A stretch of 64,000 nucleotides of DNA from a virus. Its lineage: Duplodnaviria; Heunggongvirae; Uroviricota; Caudoviricetes. Both the position numbers and the translations under genes were made by a program. The notes beneath the pieces are model-generated. The model worked only from the letters and a program-made list of their open reading frames with translations, had not been told where the DNA came from and made no database searches. The stretch spans positions 32,673-96,672 of IMG/VR virus record IMGVR_UViG_2713896909_000009; one strand, 5' to 3'. Every line of letters begins with the position of its first letter. The stretch's first letter is position 1. Below are positions 14,309-40,133 of this stretch, one piece after another.

Positions 14309-14384
14309 TGGTGGCCCCTACCGGACTCGAACCGGTGACCGTGCGATTATGAGTCGCCAGCTCTAACCACTGAGCTAAAGGGCC
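14309..14384 (-). tRNA. tRNA-Ile2 (anticodon CAU, lysidine type) or tRNA-Met
   Basis: 76-nt cloverleaf on minus strand: GGCCCTT acceptor, loop CTCATAA, TTCGAGT T-loop, CCA encoded; anticodon arm matches E. coli ileX. Confidence 0.85.
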
Positions 14385-15093: not shown

Positions 15094-15234
15094 TGGTTAT
15101 CCCTCAATAAAAGTGACATATTTATTAGATTGCGGTGCCGGGTGCCTCCCGGTGACGTTAACCAGTTAACAATTAACGCCGGAATGTTTAATCATCAAGG
15201 AGGATTGTTTTAACTGTTCCGCGTGCGCTTAGCC

Positions 15235-15329
15235 GCATTCACCACAACGGAAAGAGCATTTATGGCTCGCATCGCGGGAAAAAGCCCACGGTAGAGAGTC
15301 GAACTCTACAAATACTCTTACCTGTTGTG
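15235..15329. repeat. dispersed repeat unit 1 (conserved flanks forming a long terminal stem)
   Basis: Left flank GCATTCACCACAACGGaAAGAG, right flank CTCTTACCTGTTGTG; variable interior with internal hairpin GTAGAG-AGTCGAA-CTCTAC. Confidence 0.6.
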
Positions 15330-15382
15330 TGCTCCGTTTCGTGGAGCTAACGGCGGAGTAATCATCCGCCTCAAATTTATAA

Positions 15383-15796
15383 TTAACTGCTTGCTGATGG
15401 GTCATATTCGGTTAATTTAATCAACCGCGAATCAAGAGCTTTTCGATACTCAATCATGCTTTCGAGCTGATTTTGTAATTCCAACTGATTGTCCAAGCCC
15501 ATGGCGAGGAAGTTATCTGTTCCGATAAATCGAACTAGCTTATTTATGCGCTGGCACAGCTGAGCACGTTCGATAATCATTCGCTTGTGGTATTCTTCCA
15601 GACCATCAATTTTGCCCAACGGAGCTGCTATTTCATTAAATTCACGAAGTGGTATTTTTAGTTCGTTACCGAACACATCTACAACATCAATTTCAGATGC
15701 ATTTTCTTTCGAAACTTTATCGACCTGATAACTGGTGCTAACCACTAAAGAAATAACAAACTGCTCTTTCTGCATAATTACCGTTCTCGCACTCAT
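15383..15796 (-). CDS. hypothetical protein
   Basis: 137-aa ORF between the TerB-like gene and the repeat/tRNA array. Confidence 0.4.
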   Translation of the reverse strand: MSARTVIMQKEQFVISLVVSTSYQVDKVSKENASEIDVVDVFGNELKIPLREFNEIAAPLGKIDGLEEYHKRMIIERAQLCQRINKLVRFIGTDNFLAMGLDNQLELQNQLESMIEYRKALDSRLIKLTEYDPSASS

Positions 15797-15958
15797 TGGT
15801 GACAGTTTCTAAATAAATTGTGGTGGTCGGCGCTGATCTCCGACTGCGCCTCTTTTTGTTCATAACCCATAAGGCCGGTCAGTGCGCTTGATGACTGAGG
15901 CATCGATATTTACTACGCCGCCTCGTTGCCATAGGGCGGACTTGCGCGCCAGCAACAC

Positions 15959-16061
15959 GCATTCACCACAATGTTGAGAACACTGGTTGTCACGCGGCAA
16001 CGCAACATTTATTCATAGGTTGGGAAATGAACCCGTTACGCCAATGTTCTCAACGTTGTAG
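15959..16061. repeat. dispersed repeat unit 2 (variant flanks)
   Basis: GCATTCACCACAATGTTGAGAACA ... TGTTCTCAACGTTGTAG; same outer CACAA/TTGT(A/G)G ends. Confidence 0.5.
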
Positions 16062-16191
16062 TGCCGGTTACGGTTCCGGCCAGGCCTCTTCCTCAACGGG
16101 GTGTTCTCCGTACGGACTACCGTTTATTGGTCGTTCCTGCGGTTTATGTTGTGAAGCCAGATGCTTATCTTCTGGTTGCTTCAAAGAGCTG

Positions 16192-16267
16192 CACTTCATC
16201 ACAACGGTAAGAGCACTCGATGCATTTAAGCCAAGCCCCATAAGGGAGAATGCCCTTACCTGTTGTG
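16192..16267. repeat. dispersed repeat unit 3
   Basis: CACTTCATCACAACGGTAAGAG ... GCCCTTACCTGTTGTG. Confidence 0.6.
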
Positions 16268-16387
16268 TTGTGATGACCGGTGCTGATCTCCGGCTTGCGG
16301 TTATTTCAGACTCTCACGGGCGTTTAATTGCCCCGCCGGACAGCTCTTTTCCGCAATAGCTGCAATGTCTTTCGCGCATCAGCCTGC

Positions 16388-16482
16388 GCATTCATCACAA
16401 CGGTAAGGGTACTTCGTAGGGATTCGAACCCTCTGCCAAGCTCGGCGATCTCCGACGTCGCAAAATACCCTTACCTGTTGTG
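16388..16482. repeat. dispersed repeat unit 4 (abuts 3-prime end of tRNA-like gene)
   Basis: GCATTCATCACAACGGTAAGGG ... CCCTTACCTGTTGTG; interior contains AGGG-ATTCGAA-CCCT hairpin. Confidence 0.6.
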
Positions 16483-16483
16483 C

Positions 16484-16616
16484 TGGTGCCGGTTAACGGA
16501 TTCGAACCGCTGACCTCTGGCCTAACATCGAATCGTTGTCATTTGACCAGCAAGGCTGTCTACCGAAGTAGAAACGATGCTTTGGCTCTCGTGCTCTCCC
16601 ACTGAGCTAAACCGGC
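16484..16616 (-). tRNA. tRNA-like gene with about 58-nt internal insertion (identity unresolved; Thr by P1 synteny)
   Basis: Canonical 5-prime end GCCGGTT-TA-GCTCAGTGGGAGAGC and 3-prime end AGCGG-TTCGAAT-CCGTT-AACCGGC-A-CCA, but 80 nt lie between D-arm and variable loop. Confidence 0.45.
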
Positions 16617-16618
16617 AT

Positions 16619-16694
16619 TGGCGATGGTGGGTGGATTCGAACCACCGACCAGTTAGTTAACAGCCAACTGCTCTAACCGCTGAGCTACACCATC
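16619..16694 (-). tRNA. tRNA-Asn (anticodon GUU)
   Basis: 76-nt cloverleaf on minus strand: GATGGTG acceptor, anticodon loop CTGTTAA, T-loop TTCGAAT, CCA encoded. Confidence 0.85.
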
Positions 16695-16963
16695 ACTTGC
16701 CGGGTACGTCTCCGGCGAGGGCTTCCACCTCCGTATGCTTTTCGGCGCACCGCGCCCTGGCTGCAATTCGGTAACAGGGGATGCATAACCCTGGCTTCCA
16801 GCGTGATTAGCGCTTTCAGCATGACGGGATATACCCGTAAATTCGTGGAACTGTACCCAAAGTGCTGTTAAGCACCGCTGTTACGCTGAAAAGAAGACGC
16901 AACAGGAAAGGACGCTGACCAACAGATGGCCCCTTCTCGTTCATCTGGTTAATCACACCAGCG

Positions 16964-16978
16964 CCCTTACCTGTTGTG
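16964..16978. repeat. solo right-flank remnant of the repeat family
   Basis: ATCACA directly joined to CCCTTACCTGTTGTG without interior. Confidence 0.35.
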
Positions 16979-17365
16979 CCTCCCCGTTCCCTAATACACA
17001 GACGGGGACACTCTGCGGTCGATTTTTTGACGGGGGACGACTCATACCCCGTGGCGTCTGGCTTCTTAGGCCGCAGCCATCATCAGATCATCGTTTGCAT
17101 TTACTTTAATGGTCAGTTTCTAAACCGCCGCAAAGTCGCTAACCATGACGAAAACCCTGAAAAAACGCCCACCCGAAGATGGGCAAACAGGATGTAAGCT
17201 CGTTACGCATTTCGGTATTGCCACTTAGGCGTATGGTCAACCTGGCAACTCGGCGTCATGAGGGGGAAGGAGTCACTACCCCGCCATACTTGCCGCCGCG
17301 CCTGTCGCGGCTAACAGCTAAATCGCTCTATAAATCACGATTCATTGAAACCATATTACACTAAT

Positions 17366-17382
17366 GAATTTATTAGAGCAAT
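17366..17382. promoter_or_regulatory. C1 operator-like site
   Basis: gAATTTATTAGAGCAAT, about 16 of 17; positioned to control leftward transcription into the tRNA array. Confidence 0.5.
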
Positions 17383-20300
17383 ATAGCAATAACGTCATGA
17401 GCTACACCACGAGTGTTCCCCTTACAAGACACAGAACGTCTGGCAAAAAGAGGTTCCACTCTGAAGCCACTGTCTTGGTAAAGCTCCCTGATGTTTGGCG
17501 CACCACTATTAGTAATGAGGATCTTTGCACCTCGGCGATGAGCATCCATTAGCAGAGATACCAGGCGTTTTTGCTCTTCAAACTTAAAGTCATGACCGGA
17601 ATAGTTTGTGAACCCCTCTGTATTGGGGAGCGGTTCATACGGAGGATCGCAAAAGATGACATCTCCTTCTCCGGCAGCTTCAATCACCGCTGAAAAATCA
17701 CCACATACAAACTCAGAACGCCCTTCAGCACCGAGGAAGGCTTCCATCTCCTGTAATGGGAAATACGGAGTTTTATACTTCCCATAACCAACATTAAACT
17801 CACCGGCCTGGTTGTAACGCGTCAATCCGTTAAAACAATGTCGGTTCAGGAACAAAAACGCTGCTGCACGATGTAAATCATCATAGGCTTGTTTGTTAAA
17901 CGCATTCCGTACTGCCAGGTATCCTTCCTGTGTGTTGTAGTCCTGGAAAAACCGATGCGCCAGAGTGATAAGTGAATGTCCCTCACGTTGCAGAGTCCTG
18001 TAAAAGTTAATCAGGTCAGCATTCACATCATTTAGCAGATTTTCTTGATATCCGGCATTTATGAAAACAGCTCCGCCACCAACGAAAGGCTCGATCAGGC
18101 GCTTTCCGTCAGGTAAATGCCTAAAGATTTGTTCAAGAACACCAAATTTTCCGCCGACCCATTTAAATATGGGACGGTCAAATTCTGCCGTTAGCTTAAC
18201 TCTCCGTTCTGTTGCTTCATGATTTTTTGCCTGCTGATATGCAGCCTTAATAATCCGCTCACCAATCCATCGCATTACTGGTATCGCCATGCTATTGCCG
18301 ATCGCTTTGTAACGCGGTCCGTCAGCTGCAAGCATCGCGGCCTCTTCTTCGCTTAAATCTGGATAGTGATTGCGAAGGTATGCCAGTTCATCTGAAGTAA
18401 CTTTTTTACGCTTTTCCGTCGGGATCAACGTATGCCCATCAGGAAAACCTTGCAGTCTTTCACATTCGACAGGGGTAAGACGGCGGACAGCTACTGCTGC
18501 GTTTCCTACGTCATAGCAAACGGCTGTTGTATTTTTGGCCATTAAAGATGGTGAAGTATTCTTAGTTGCAGCATGTTGTGTACCGCTCATACGTTCAGGA
18601 AAAGCCAATGTAACAAGATGCTCATGGCTTTCTTGCTCACGTGCCCGCAATGTACCATGCCCTTCTGACCAAAAACCTGCTCCTGTGCTGCTAAAAACTG
18701 CAAGGTCAGTGGCATCTTTAAAGTCTCTCGCCTTTACTGTCGATGCGGTTTCATCGCCAATATATTCCCCAAATGCCGCCATCCTGAAAGCGTTTACGGC
18801 TTTCGTCGATTTCATACCGGGGGTAATGTCAGCGTGTAGGCATGGATTTAGGCTTTCGCCACTGATTGCAGCGCCATTTGCAATAATGGCGGAAGCGATT
18901 TCCTTCTTTTTTCGGCTCGGCGCAATATTCCGGCGCACGCCTTCGAACTCAAAAAGTACCGTTGCGGGATCGAGGTCTGTTCGAGCACTTGCGACAACAA
19001 ACACACGTCGGCGTCGTTGTGCCACTCCGAAGTATTGGGCATCAAGGATTCTCCAGGCCACCTTTCGCTGCGGTCCATAAATACAACCACACTGCGGCCA
19101 CTTTGGAGCATGGCAACCGGTTTTGCCATCCCACCGCCAGAACGCGTTACTTTTTCCTGATTCAGGTCGATCACCTGGTTCAAATGGCGCATCTTCTCCA
19201 GCCAATCCGGCAAGGAAACATCCGAAGGCGTTATCTGCCGATGACAAGACTCCTGGGACATTTTCCCAGACGATAACGGCTGGTTTGAGAAATGACTCAG
19301 CCCGTTTGTCGTCAATTGCATTTGCAAGCTCCACATACTTTAAAGTTAGCGCGCCACGCTCATCATCAAGCCCACCACGTAATCCCGCGATACTGAATGC
19401 CTGACAGTTATGGACCACCGCACCATTGAGGATATAGGAATGATCACCTTCGACTTCTATGTTGTATACAGTATCTAGGCCTACCGATTTAAACTCTTTG
19501 ACTGTTCGTAAAAGCATTCCATGAGCCAATCTTGATTTACGTGACAATTTCTGCGGGCAGATTGTTACCTGATAATAATTCCGTTGATTTACCACGCGAT
19601 CCTCGATCACTTTTTTGGGCTCAACTTCAATAAAGCTGACCGAAGAAACATAACCACAAGTCTGTGACACCCCCGCAACGCCCCAAGCAAGCGCAGGACT
19701 AACACTATTAATTCTAAATCCCGCTTTACCACTTGGTGTCCCATCAGTATCAAGATAGCCTTGTAAAAACACATGACGCAATGGATGCGACATCACCCAT
19801 GCAGGGATACGCTTAGCATGGCTTAACTCGCCAAAATGTTCATTAAGCCAATTGGCATAACACGTATCATTCAAGGTTACTTTGATGCTCCCTCGGATTT
19901 CTCTTGCCACGGAAAATATGTTTTCTGGTATGCGACAATGAAACTTTCTCAATTTCTGGCAATTTATGCAAAAAACAACCGCCTTCTTAGATTTACCTCT
20001 CCATCTCCTAATATATCCATCGCCAACATAAGCGCCCGCAAGATACATAGCCTGTTCTTCAGACAAGAACCGAGAACAAATATCTGGAGATGCAATATTG
20101 AAATTAGTTAGAGCGCACCATTGATATCCTGGCATATCACATGCTGCTCGCCATTCCGGTTCAGACAACAACTCTCTCTTAAAATATGTGCCATTTTTCC
20201 GGGTGTTTTGGGCTTTCCACCGAACAGCCAGGAAGGGATGGTCATTGGTTGTTCTTATACCTAAAGGCTGCCCAACGGCATTAAGTAACCCCGTATTAGC

Positions 20301-20660
20301 TATTTTTGAACCAACTCTTTTTACTTGTTGTAACCGCCCGAGATGACTGACTACGTAATCGCCAGGGCAAACATCTTCTATTGGTTTATAACCATTTTTA
20401 CAAAGAACCATATGCCCCGCGGTAAAACATGGTGTTCCCCCGACGAGCACGTCAGGGGATTCTATTTCCCCAGCCAGGACTTTTTTGGCAAGTTTAGTCA
20501 TGTCGCCAAGGTTGGCGACATGGGGCCAGCGGTGCGCAAGAACGGCCGATGGAAAAGACTCGATTTCAGCAAACCACGCCGGACGCATACCCAACGGTTC
20601 CCAGGCAATACTCGCGGCTTCAATTCCACTGCAAACAGATCCATAGCACAGCTCTTTCAC
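17373..20660 (-). CDS. dmt: bifunctional DNA methyltransferase: C5-cytosine MTase (intein-interrupted) fused to Dam-type N6-adenine MTase
   Basis: C5 motifs [41 protein letters not shown]; Dam motifs [19 protein letters not shown]; 1095 aa including a 341-aa intein. Confidence 0.85.
19407..20429 (-). mobile_element. intein with LAGLIDADG homing-endonuclease domain, inserted at the catalytic Cys codon of the C5-MTase
   Basis: Starts CFTAGHMVL (block A), TTNDHPF (block B), [11 protein letters not shown] and [10 protein letters not shown], ends VVHN followed by Cys+1; excision restores GGTPCQAF. Confidence 0.75.
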
Positions 20661-32418: not shown

Positions 32419-33234
32419 ATGAGCAAAAACTTTTTTCAATCCGGGGCATTTTTGGGGAATGGACTGTCTCGTTTCGCTTTGAACTCTGATCCTGTGCAGC
32501 TGATGGAGTCTGCCCGAGCAAGCGCCGAACCGCCAACAGATCCGGTTATTAATAATAATCCGGAACCGGCGGCACAGACTAACGATAACGTTCCATCTGC
32601 CCCGGCTCCTGAGCAAATCCTGGAAGGGAAAGACGGTAAAGAATGGACCGTCGAACAGGCGCACCAGATGATTCTGGAAGCTGCAAATCGAAGTGCTATG
32701 CAGAATGCGTTGAGTGATGCGGCCGACGCCGTTTTCGCCTGGGCTGATAGCGGTGATCTGACTTTCGACTCCCTTGATGGTTTCGTTCAGGCTATCGCTG
32801 GTATCTCTGATGACGACGACTCCGAAGTTACAGAAGAACAGGACGATGCCTATAACGAAGCATGGGCAAATGTTGCTGACTTCCTCGCAGCATGCGGTGT
32901 AGATGATGACCTGATCGAAGCACTGGCTGACGATGAAGACGACGACGCAGCTGCTGATGTTGGTGCCTCTATCGCTGGTTTAGATAGCGACGACCGCGAC
33001 GAACTGGAAGCGGCGTTTGTTGTTGCTGGCACTTCTGATGAAATGCTGACTGAAGCATTTAAGAAGGTTGTTCGTAATGGTGAGATCAAACTCATCCGTA
33101 AACGCCTGCGTAAAAAACGTCTGACTGCGGCTCAAAAATCGGCGCTGAAAAAAGCACGCCGTAAAGCCCAGACCGGCGCGGCAAAACTGGCCCGCAAAAA
33201 GTCAATGAAACTGCGCCGTAAGCGCCTCGGCTAA
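32419..33234 (+). CDS. hypothetical protein, acidic body with Lys/Arg-rich C-terminal tail
   Basis: Asp/Glu runs (DDEDDDAAAD) then KRLRKKRLTAAQKSALKKARRKAQ. Confidence 0.5.
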   Translation: MSKNFFQSGAFLGNGLSRFALNSDPVQLMESARASAEPPTDPVINNNPEPAAQTNDNVPSAPAPEQILEGKDGKEWTVEQAHQMILEAANRSAMQNALSDAADAVFAWADSGDLTFDSLDGFVQAIAGISDDDDSEVTEEQDDAYNEAWANVADFLAACGVDDDLIEALADDEDDDAAADVGASIAGLDSDDRDELEAAFVVAGTSDEMLTEAFKKVVRNGEIKLIRKRLRKKRLTAAQKSALKKARRKAQTGAAKLARKKSMKLRRKRLG

Positions 33235-39849: not shown

Positions 39850-39960
39850 TGCTACCCGCTGCTAAACAGGTGGCAGGACGTGACGGGGTTAGCAGACTGG
39901 CGTTAGTGAAACCAGCAGGCCGAAGCCTCCCCATCACGCCCCACCATAATTTGGGCGTAA
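39850..39960 (-). ncRNA. candidate c4 antisense-RNA region (approximate)
   Basis: Between operator and icd; short mutually complementary segments (CTGCTAA / TTAGCAG, CCTGCT / AGCAGG); boundaries not determined. Confidence 0.3.
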
Positions 39961-40133
39961 CGCGGTTTTACGGACACAAAAATACCGCAATATCGGATAT
40001 CTGCGGTTGTCCGCACTAACATTCAGGCTGCTAAACCCGGTCGCAGAATTTGCTACGACGGCGGAACTATAAGCCTGAACGATTAAAAGGTCAATATGAT
40101 GCGAAAAGATAGCATTCGCGACTTAAAAATACA

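Follow-up and report, generated by a model that had tools for sequence, protein, structure and literature searches.

What divides the long, almost entirely untranslated leader of the ban operon of P1-like phages into its tRNA and small RNA (sRNA) parts, and what is the nature of the dispersed repeats that recur between these parts? The locus that raises this question lies in a 64-kb stretch of DNA (IMG/VR record IMGVR_UViG_2713896909_000009, positions 32,673 to 96,672; hereafter, the window), which represents a P1-like plasmid prophage of Escherichia albertii. The 2-kb region that carries the repeats is 100% identical to plasmid NZ_CP117630.1, and shows partial similarity to phage P1 and its relatives (48-58% coverage, 96-97% identity). 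Mosaicism is strong here: of the 1116 plasmid matches, a single one covers at least 80% of the 2-kb query.

The repeat region constitutes the untranslated leader of the ban operon, an operon under repressor control; in the RNA sense, the leader runs from about 17380 down to 15093 on the minus strand of the window. In the homologous stretch of P1, between dmt and tciA, the annotation places the operator and promoter (Oban, or Op72, and Pban), a 'dicF-like region', trnA (Asn) and trnT (Thr), with tciABC, trnI and ban farther downstream; all these elements share one strand. Op72 is annotated as a bivalent C1 operator that controls the ban operon, in agreement with a preliminary description of the region, made from the sequence without database searches, that had assigned the repeats to an operator-controlled tRNA operon. 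The first ~2.2 kb of the operon are nearly all non-coding and comprise a short terminated RNA, tRNA-Asn, a tRNA-Thr-like RNA, modules of the STnc100 type and one small open reading frame (ORF).

Five hairpin units in the ban leader

The repeats form five complete hairpins, listed here in the order of transcription:

16898-16978, minus strand: unit 5, upstream of tRNA-Asn (fold -50.2 kcal/mol, z -5.2; structural scan)
16396-16482, minus strand: unit 4, head type A, starting 1 nt past the CCA of the tRNA-Thr-like RNA (fold -40.3 kcal/mol)
16200-16267, minus strand: unit 3, head type B (fold -32.5 kcal/mol, compared with -22 for the antisense strand)
15967-16060, minus strand: unit 2 (inverted repeat I1, 23 nt, 87% complementary; fold z -4.3; structural scan)
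15243-15329, minus strand: unit 1, head type E, with two inner hairpins, one of them with the loop UUCGACU (fold; structural scan)

In the RNA sense, a unit reads 5' CACAAC-A-GGUAAGRGYAUU ... head ... RRURCYCUU(A/U)CC-GUUGUG 3'. The stem consists of 6 bp, a bulged A, 2 bp, often a U.U mismatch (or a U-A pair) and then at least 11 bp, in total 19-22 bp or about two helical turns of double-stranded RNA (dsRNA), and this near-constant stem encloses a variable head of 31-72 nt. The preliminary description had correctly recognized that the conserved flanks pair as long terminal stems, but had put their length at 13-15 bp. Every unit folds in this manner on the minus strand, with energies 3.3-5.2 standard deviations below those of dinucleotide shuffles. 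The right flank, CYCTTACCTGTTGTG, is present in four perfect copies (at 15315, 16253, 16468 and 16964), a count that was reached by no shuffle, and the rest of the 64 kb contains none even when up to two mismatches are allowed; the left flank recurs at 15236, 15960, 16193 and 16389 with 0-2 mismatches. Both flank families were recovered independently by a repeat search (as D1 and D2), and a structural scan of the whole window found members of the family only within 15243-16978.

Four of these units had been delineated before, whereas the element then taken for a collapsed remnant (16964-16978) is the 5' arm of the complete fifth hairpin. The left flank as originally drawn turned out to be composite: its inner part belongs to the hairpin, but the outer GCATTCAYCAC (GUGRUGAAUGC in RNA) is the start of the next downstream module, which, after unit 1, is an Rfam STnc100 match at 15131-15246. 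The stem of unit 5 is bulge-free and quasi-palindromic (3' arm CAGCGUCCUUUCCUGUUGCG), and its variants in related genomes include a compensatory change from C-G to U-A. The arms of unit 2 are noncanonical yet pair with each other (UACAACGUUGAGAACAUUGG with CCAGUGUUCUCAACAUUGUG). T-loop-like loops, also noted earlier, are present in unit 4 (GGGUUCGAAUCCC, T-arm-like), unit 1 (GAGUUCGACUCUC) and unit 2 (GGGUUCAUUUCCC), but do not constitute a family-wide trait.

Several familiar types of element were considered for the units and rejected. A clustered regularly interspaced short palindromic repeat (CRISPR) array, which the preliminary description had already discounted, does not fit the start-to-start spacings of 724, 233 and 196 nt, nor the organization of the repeats as inverted pairs rather than direct copies. 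The units are not tRNAs: ARAGORN and Rfam call only tRNA-Asn and tRNA-Met(CAU), and the heads bear T-arm-like hairpins at most. They are not STnc100 RNAs either; the sole match to that family covers the module after unit 1 together with 4-12 nt of the unit end, and no unit was matched at E values up to 5. Searches of the window, P1, mEp460 and Qin against Rfam at gathering and permissive thresholds, a check proposed along with the preliminary description, found no family that covers the units, only weak, chance-level matches to microRNA (miRNA) precursors and to YrlA. The idea of a Y-RNA bound by Ro was abandoned on the latter evidence, given that the YrlA match scores 21-26 bits against a gathering score of 69 and merely spans two adjacent tRNAs. 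A C1 operator within the 3' arm was likewise dismissed, with only 10 of the 17 positions of the operator consensus in agreement. As far as we found in the literature, these hairpins have not been described previously as a family.

Conservation of the stem and spread of the family

The stem is an RNA structure of the tRNA-sense strand that is kept by compensatory changes. An alignment of 25 arm sets that represent different heads and genera has standard pairs in 94.1% of its cells, compared with 87.7% when the partners are shuffled, and none of 500 shuffles reached the observed value; the units in this set were pre-selected by a closed-stem filter, and the pairing percentage is somewhat inflated, with the compensatory changes and the slid controls less affected. 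Both sides have changed in 11 of the 19 pairs, and pairing falls to 36-60% when the partner is slid by 1-3 columns. The preliminary description had left it to a covariance analysis whether the flanks are kept as pairs in related genomes; they are, with compensatory changes. There is hardly any variation in the six basal pairs, CACAAC/GUUGUG; 16 of the 25 sequences have a conserved U.U at position 10-39, and pair 18-31 is U.G in 18 of the 25, a wobble that is possible on the sense strand only. Diverged copies (Qin, mEp460, unit 2 and Cyrano) keep the helix with a different sequence, and in those of Qin and mEp460, the bulge and the 1x1 mismatch are found at the same places. In 27 of 28 head classes, the structure formed by the sense strand is more stable than that of the antisense strand (mean difference -5.4 kcal/mol, Wilcoxon p 2e-5). 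Together with the coincidence, by length, of the Qin copy with an RNase III site (see below), this strand preference agrees with the earlier view of the repeats as a family of structured RNAs or processing cassettes.

The heads, taken as a class, are no better structured than shuffles (mean z -0.31, p 0.15) and display a non-significant strand bias. Freely varying, unstructured heads are expected if the stem is what is recognized. The type E head of unit 1 is an exception, with two inner hairpins kept by three compensatory pairs in the Kluyvera and Erwinia copies.

The same arms are present in P1, P7, D6, SJ46 and every other P1-like locus compared, and an exact-pattern scan of viral contigs identified more than 119 loci. 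Among 256 canonical units, 114 start 0-3 nt past a tRNA 3' end, and a unit comes after 113 of the 114 tRNA-Thr genes. Depending on the phage, the slot after tRNA-Thr holds head type A (in ~100 loci), B, D or E, and one head type occurs with differing downstream modules; the tRNA-Ser of P7 is likewise followed by a variant unit. Other units come after terminator-like hairpins or a fixed small hairpin. Beyond the P1-like elements, units are found in SSU5-like phage-plasmids, in the leader of the tRNA genes of the T1-like, Klebsiella-hosted phage IME207, and in the early-left leader of mEp460-type lambdoid prophages. In phage lambda, a canonical unit whose arms are identical occupies 44788-44861 and is located 8 nt past the tR' terminator in the late leader, which is the sole long untranslated stretch of the late transcript. 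A diverged copy resides in the dicBF operon of the Qin prophage (NC_000913, 1649173-1649256).

A loose pattern scan of species-representative genomes yielded many chance matches and lambda contaminants, from which true members were told apart by their arm extensions. By this measure, true members are present in many genera, among them Serratia, Klebsiella, Pectobacterium, Kluyvera, Pantoea, Erwinia, Enterobacter, Brenneria, Raoultella, Pluralibacter, Rouxiella and Superficieibacter, so that the family spans at least 12 enterobacterial genera overall. In these genera, the arms are near-invariant and the head is different each time, and the units are often located just past a terminator-like hairpin and often followed by GUGAAUGCGCAGGCUGAUGCGC. 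Across the family, at least 27 different head classes were distinguished. The identical lambda late-leader sequence was also encountered at four loci and about 25 others in assemblies of unrelated organisms (among them Pseudomonas, Shewanella, Algoriphagus and archaeal metagenome-assembled genomes), often on contigs of ~48.4 kb or on very short ones, which looks like contamination with lambda DNA.

In P1, the hairpins lie without RNA annotation beneath two predicted antisense ORFs, upl and plp ('putative lipoprotein'). These ORFs (2483-3052 (+) of the P1 extract; window 16027-16359 (+)) are predicted antisense to the operon, across the hairpin units, and plp additionally overlaps trnT. Relatives show module-sized insertions and deletions here, and because of these differences, the two may not be real genes.

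Probable RNase III processing and competing explanations

We consider it probable that the units are phage leader-RNA hairpins that act as processing, or 'punctuation', sites for the host RNase III, because about two turns of dsRNA with fixed irregularities sit exactly at the borders of stable RNA modules. An RNase III site is expected to provide at least 20 bp of mostly continuous dsRNA on the transcribed strand and to be located between the RNA units of one transcript; the stems described here are 19-22 bp long on the minus strand, and all units lie between Pban and tciA.

The most direct evidence comes from the Qin prophage, where a 190-nt DicF species is lost without RNase III, and its 5' end, determined by primer extension, is an RNase III cut (bioRxiv 10.1101/2023.04.14.536235, confirming Faubladier et al. 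1990). In the same work, the upstream ydfABC RNA was undetected without RNase III, and the authors suggest that processing may stabilize that RNA (bioRxiv 10.1101/2023.04.14.536235). The 3' arm of the Qin unit occupies 1649238-1649256 of NC_000913, and DicF ends at 1649434 plus a few U (~1649434-1649439). The 190-nt species therefore starts at about 1649245-1649250, inside the Qin 3' arm and 8-12 nt above its base; we infer this position of the cut from the 190-nt length rather than from a mapped nucleotide. The Qin hairpin is homologous to the P1-type units and built alike: its 7-bp base, which ends in AAC/GUU, is followed by a bulge of 1 nt, 2 bp and a 1x1 mismatch, and a variable head tops the long upper stem; it is similarly located in an untranslated part of a repressor-controlled prophage operon, beside an sRNA and an STnc100-like module. 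It differs in its diverged arm (CAUAACGCGAAAGCGCAUGG compared with CACAACAGGUAAGAGCAUUG), in being a single copy, and in having no adjacent tRNA; the published work makes no mention of its membership in a repeat family. An RNA-seq study of RNase III (PMC5371410) has the DicF processing paper in its reference list only and contains no report on the dicBF region, and the literature searched holds nothing on RNA processing in the ban operon of P1.

The late leader of lambda, with one copy and no tRNA genes, unlike the P1-type leaders, is a probable homolog. RNase III processing sites in this leader are reportedly the subject of a paper by Daniels, Subbarao, Blattner and Lozeron (Virology 167:568, 1988), and the lambda unit at 44788-44861 is the obvious candidate for the published site. 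Dispersed hairpins and long-range stems cut by the host RNase III are also known from phage T7 (signals R0.3 ... R18.5) and from the rRNA operons, where they free stable RNAs, including spacer tRNAs. The P1-type units would be the same kind of device, placed between the functional units of a polycistronic transcript, but bear no sequence relationship to those signals; furthermore, in the T7 sites, the loops are small and an internal loop restricts cleavage to a single cut, whereas the P1-type units combine a hypervariable head of 31-72 nt with near-invariant arms.

Under this model, the ban transcript would be made on the minus strand from the C1-controlled promoter, and RNase III would cut both arms of a hairpin about 8-12 bp above the base of the stem. 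Such a cut would detach the stable RNA on the upstream side, be it a tRNA or a read-through terminated sRNA, from the downstream sequence. The tRNA would keep a short 3' trailer that exonucleases could trim, the downstream module would acquire a new 5' end, and the variable head would be released, as a by-product or a product. By homology, all five P1-type hairpins would be cut, and the tRNA pair, the S-modules (see below) and the tciA-ban mRNA would be freed from one another. The constant arms would probably double as homologous joints for the exchange of heads and neighboring modules between phages.

Several considerations weigh against RNase III processing, at least as a complete account. 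The Qin assignment relies on a gel length, and the published nucleotide, 'between positions 813 and 814', is not tied to a sequence; the published sites in lambda may lie outside the hairpin; and the cleavage of P1 and all canonical-arm copies is extrapolated from the Qin homolog. The sequences in the covariation analysis were pre-selected for folding, which somewhat inflates the pairing percentage given above. The arm is near-invariant across genera, though RNase III needs no sequence conservation, and this suggests an extra constraint, such as a binding partner or recombination. A hairpin for cleavage only needs no head of 31-72 nt, and the type E head keeps its own hairpins in a compensatory manner. 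RNase III alone leaves two features unexplained, namely, the near-invariant sequence of the arms and the freely exchanged apex. Arms that serve as module-shuffling joints and heads that are themselves products are plausible additions, compatible with RNase III processing.

Each of these additions can also be taken as an explanation in its own right. If the stem were a scaffold similar to that of primary miRNAs, the head would be the product, an RNA of 40-70 nt that acts on targets in the host or in rival phages or serves as a tRNA-like decoy. This possibility, which we consider unlikely, is compatible with RNase III cleavage but shifts the function to the heads. It is in line with the occurrence of at least 27 unrelated heads between near-identical arms and of differing heads in one slot after tRNA-Thr, with the type E inner hairpins and their three compensatory pairs across Escherichia, Kluyvera and Erwinia, and with the compensatory changes in both stem and inner hairpin that were found for type F by inspection of IME207 and another copy. 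Several heads have T-arm-like hairpins, type A resembles an acceptor-plus-T minihelix, and the neighboring modules belong to a reported family of prophage sRNAs (STnc100, PasD). The heads as a class, however, are no more structured than shuffles, with no significant strand bias, no shared loop motif or seed was found among them, and the T-arm-like pieces may be debris of adjacent tRNA genes, given that a tRNA-Thr 3' remnant precedes unit 2. The more specific version, a phage counterpart of primary miRNA cassettes in which many unrelated enterobacterial phages would employ a constant stem, recognized by RNase III, to deliver rapidly exchanged head RNAs, some of them tRNA-mimicking, that would act in trans, for instance as decoys against tRNA-targeting defense nucleases or as regulators of RNAs of the host or of rival phages, is doubtful, too. 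That the arms are DNA-level linkers, joints for homologous recombination that shuffle tRNA and sRNA modules, with the RNA hairpin being incidental, is quite improbable. The mosaicism of the region, with its single well-covering match among 1116, the coincidence of break-points with the arms, the combination of the same head with varied downstream modules and of varied heads with the same upstream tRNA, and the presence of identical arms in unrelated phage types all speak for recombination at these sites. Plain linkers would not, however, require inverted copies with a fixed bulge and mismatch, a strand preference (the G.U pairs and the 27 of 28 classes) or compensatory changes on divergence, and recombination is better seen as a consequence that coexists with an RNA function.

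The remaining explanations attach to short motifs or to the palindromic shape of the units. The 5' arm begins with CACAACA, the consensus of GcvB R1 targets, and the units could accordingly be sponges or mimics of GcvB, acting like the prophage-encoded anti-sRNA AgvB, which provides the precedent (PMC4104026). The 3' arm with its tail, CUUACCGUUGUGAUG, is identical to GcvB nt 58-72 at 14 of 15 positions (the GcvB sequence being confirmed by an Rfam score of 199 bits), 9-mers are shared in both senses, and the arms are conserved across genera that likewise keep GcvB R1. Yet the predicted R1 duplexes, at -16 to -20 kcal/mol, are not clearly beyond composition-matched shuffles (0.05-0.15 of which are at least as good), the 20-mer has an equally good chance match elsewhere in GcvB, and the intramolecular stems are far stronger. 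AgvB, a phage leader- or moron-encoded RNA that also contains the R1 target consensus, is 51-60 nt long, ends in a terminator and has the motif in a single-stranded 5' end, whereas in the units, the motif is buried in a stem of -32 to -40 kcal/mol, no terminator follows, and the Rfam AgvB model is unmatched; we regard this explanation as very unlikely. An antitermination signal, of the nut type or the anti-Rho-like rrn type, is suggested by three features: many types have the boxA-like UGCUCUUA or UGCUCUUU in the 3' arm, a hairpin of 5 bp (GCGCA-GGCUGA-UGCGC) comes 12-14 nt after the boxA-like bases, and the block ...GUGCUCUUUCCGUUGUGGUGAAUGCGCAGGCUGAUGCGC is conserved across genera, with the resemblance to boxA and boxB judged against the consensus sequences rather than by a model score. 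The elements reside in leaders of repressor- or antiterminator-controlled operons (P1 ban, lambdoid early-left and lambda late), and a 2-kb untranslated leader might need an anti-Rho signal. Against this stand the pairing of the boxA-like bases (UGCUCUU(A/U)) in the stem, their absence from type A, unit 2 and unit 5, the different sequence after the lambda copy, and the location of the only terminator-like site in the P1 leader (terminator scan) upstream of all units; an antitermination role is highly improbable. Least credible is a mobile palindrome or an integron attC-type site. The units are reminiscent of such elements in their size (68-122 nt), in the strictly conserved outer bases AAC...GTT, in their presence at many unrelated loci, and in having imperfectly inverted arms, with one extrahelical base, around a variable center. 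The attC core, RYYYAAC and GTTRRRY, is nevertheless not matched by the outer ends (G/A)CACAAC and GTTGTG(A/G), as the preliminary description had held, the stem lacks an unpaired central spacer and is continuous save for one bulge and one 1x1 mismatch, and the strand bias of the units and their location in operon leaders beside tRNAs fit a transcript. To our knowledge, P1, lambda and T1-like replicons carry no integron integrase, although no search for one was made here. The absence of target-site duplications at the inspected P1, IME207 and lambda junctions, together with interiors that fall into at least 27 unrelated classes instead of being copies of one element, led us to reject miniature inverted-repeat transposable elements and repetitive extragenic palindromes along with attC.

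Modules between the hairpins and their significance

If RNase III separates the parts of the ban leader, the identity of these parts is of interest. In the order of transcription, the leader consists of the operator/promoter, the terminated short RNA, unit 5, tRNA-Asn, the tRNA-Thr-like RNA, unit 4, an S-module, unit 3, a spacer with a tRNA-Thr remnant, unit 2, a second S-type module, a 137-aa ORF, unit 1 and an STnc100-like leader, followed by tciA. The features other than the hairpin units, together with the tRNA-Met farther downstream, are:

17366-17382, minus strand: C1-operator-like sequence ATTGCTCTAATAAATTC at the start of the operon (sequence; P1 annotates Oban (Op72) and Pban at the homologous place)
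17166-17189, minus strand: intrinsic-terminator-like hairpin with a U-run, which ends the short leader RNA just downstream of the operator/promoter (terminator scan)
16619-16694, minus strand: tRNA-Asn (GUU) (ARAGORN; Rfam tRNA, 71.7 bits)
16484-16618, minus strand: tRNA-Thr-like RNA, in the tRNA-Thr slot of P1 (alignment with trnT of P1, D6 and Cyrano)
16268-16401, minus strand: S-module, which starts with GUUGUGAUGAAUGC and then the hairpin GCGCAGGCUGAUGCGC, and ends with the hairpin GCCGGAGAUCAGCACCGGU and then CAUCACAAC
16061-16199, minus strand: spacer ending in the tRNA-Thr 3'-end remnant CCGUAACCGGCAC, directly before unit 2 (sequence; same junction in P1 and P7)
15815-15972, minus strand: second S-type module, which starts with GUGGUGAAUGC and ends with the hairpin GUCGGAGAUCAGCGCCGAC and then CACCACAA (sequence)
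15383-15796, minus strand: 137-aa ORF with a crAss001_48 domain (ORF list; Pfam PF21825, E 5.6e-12)
15131-15246, minus strand: STnc100-like leader of tciA, with the first bases GUGGUGAAUGC (Rfam RF02076, 47.3 bits; gathering score, 47)
14309-14384: tRNA-Met(CAU), homolog of P1 trnI (ARAGORN/Rfam)

The first ~150 nt of the ban leader (window 17166-17330, minus strand), which correspond to the 'dicF-like region' of the P1 annotation, are homologous to a stretch just upstream of dicF in the Qin prophage of K-12 (19258-19380 of the Qin extract), not to DicF itself. Because this dicF-upstream-like stretch has its own terminator-like hairpin at its end, it may, judging from its sequence, be a separate small RNA transcribed from the C1-controlled promoter.

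In the tRNA-Thr-like RNA, the CCA end is present and the acceptor, D and T arms are intact, but the anticodon arm (17 nt) has given way to an element of 76 nt; ARAGORN makes no call for this RNA, except for a poor intron model. It is no one-off disruption: the RNA is 93-100% identical in 11 plasmid records, including SSU5-like phage-plasmids of Salmonella and E. coli, and in all of these, it is found in the tRNA-Thr slot, with a hairpin unit of varying type after it. More generally, the set of tRNAs at this locus differs among P1-like and SSU5-like elements, with various combinations of Asn, Tyr, Thr, Ser(UGA) and Arg(UCU) and a downstream Ile2-type CAU tRNA, so that tRNA cassettes are evidently gained and lost here.

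The S-module (~135 nt) has counterparts of ~98% identity in the early-left leaders of lambdoid phages (mEp460 and the Stx type) and in the tRNA leader of the T1-like Klebsiella phage IME207. Its place in the early-left leader of lambdoid prophages has the repressor gene on one side and yfdP on the other. Of 5426 complete E. coli genomes, 1060 contain a match to the S-module region, with 719 chromosomal places, and no annotated feature underlies it among the chromosomal matches listed. The ends of the S-module, GUUGUGAUGA and UCAUCACAAC, can pair, competing for GUUGUG with the preceding hairpin. A DicF-like sRNA after the S-module of mEp460 was considered and rejected, with no match to the Rfam DicF model. 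The second S-type module is related to the end of the first (direct repeat D8, 82% identity). The 137-aa ORF, found in some P1-like plasmids only, is a cargo gene between units 2 and 1 that lies outside the RNA family.

The hairpin units and the STnc100/PasD sRNAs are adjacent and interlocked: the module that starts at the 3' arm of each unit (GUGRUGAAUGC...) is STnc100-like, with one copy at the Rfam threshold, whereas the units themselves are matched by neither STnc100 nor any other Rfam model. STnc100/PasD sRNAs have been reported from prophage 'moron', leader and terB neighborhoods (bioRxiv 10.64898/2026.05.13.724894), and the product of tciA, downstream of the STnc100-like leader in the window, matches Pfam TerB.

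Two further observations concern other parts of the prophage. C4 antisense RNA and its a1/b1 target (window 39866-39951 and 40020-40072, minus strand; Rfam) are the immI immunity elements expected of a phage of the P1/P7 type. The Dmt methyltransferase (window 17373-20660, minus strand; 1095 aa) contains an intein-like insert on its N-terminal side, with Hint and LAGLIDADG domains at about aa 77-418; among several P1-like plasmids, a dmt of the same 3.3-kb length is present in E. albertii pEA50_2 and phage Ro157c2YLVW, compared with ~2.3 kb for the dmt ORF of P1.

The hairpins constitute an RNA family in which exchangeable heads are set on a constant stem; it lacks an Rfam model and is common to P1-like, SSU5-like, T1-like and lambdoid phages. 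The combination of a constant stem with hypervariable heads is unusual and opens the question of whether the heads are functional small RNAs. The family can be used as an annotation marker of phage non-coding RNA islands and indicates the sites at which tRNA and sRNA modules are exchanged between phages. If RNase III punctuation is correct, it would assign a role to leader sequence of P1, lambda and Qin that has no RNA annotation, and in which P1 carries two doubtful antisense ORFs, and it would explain how a 2-kb untranslated tRNA/sRNA leader is divided into its parts.

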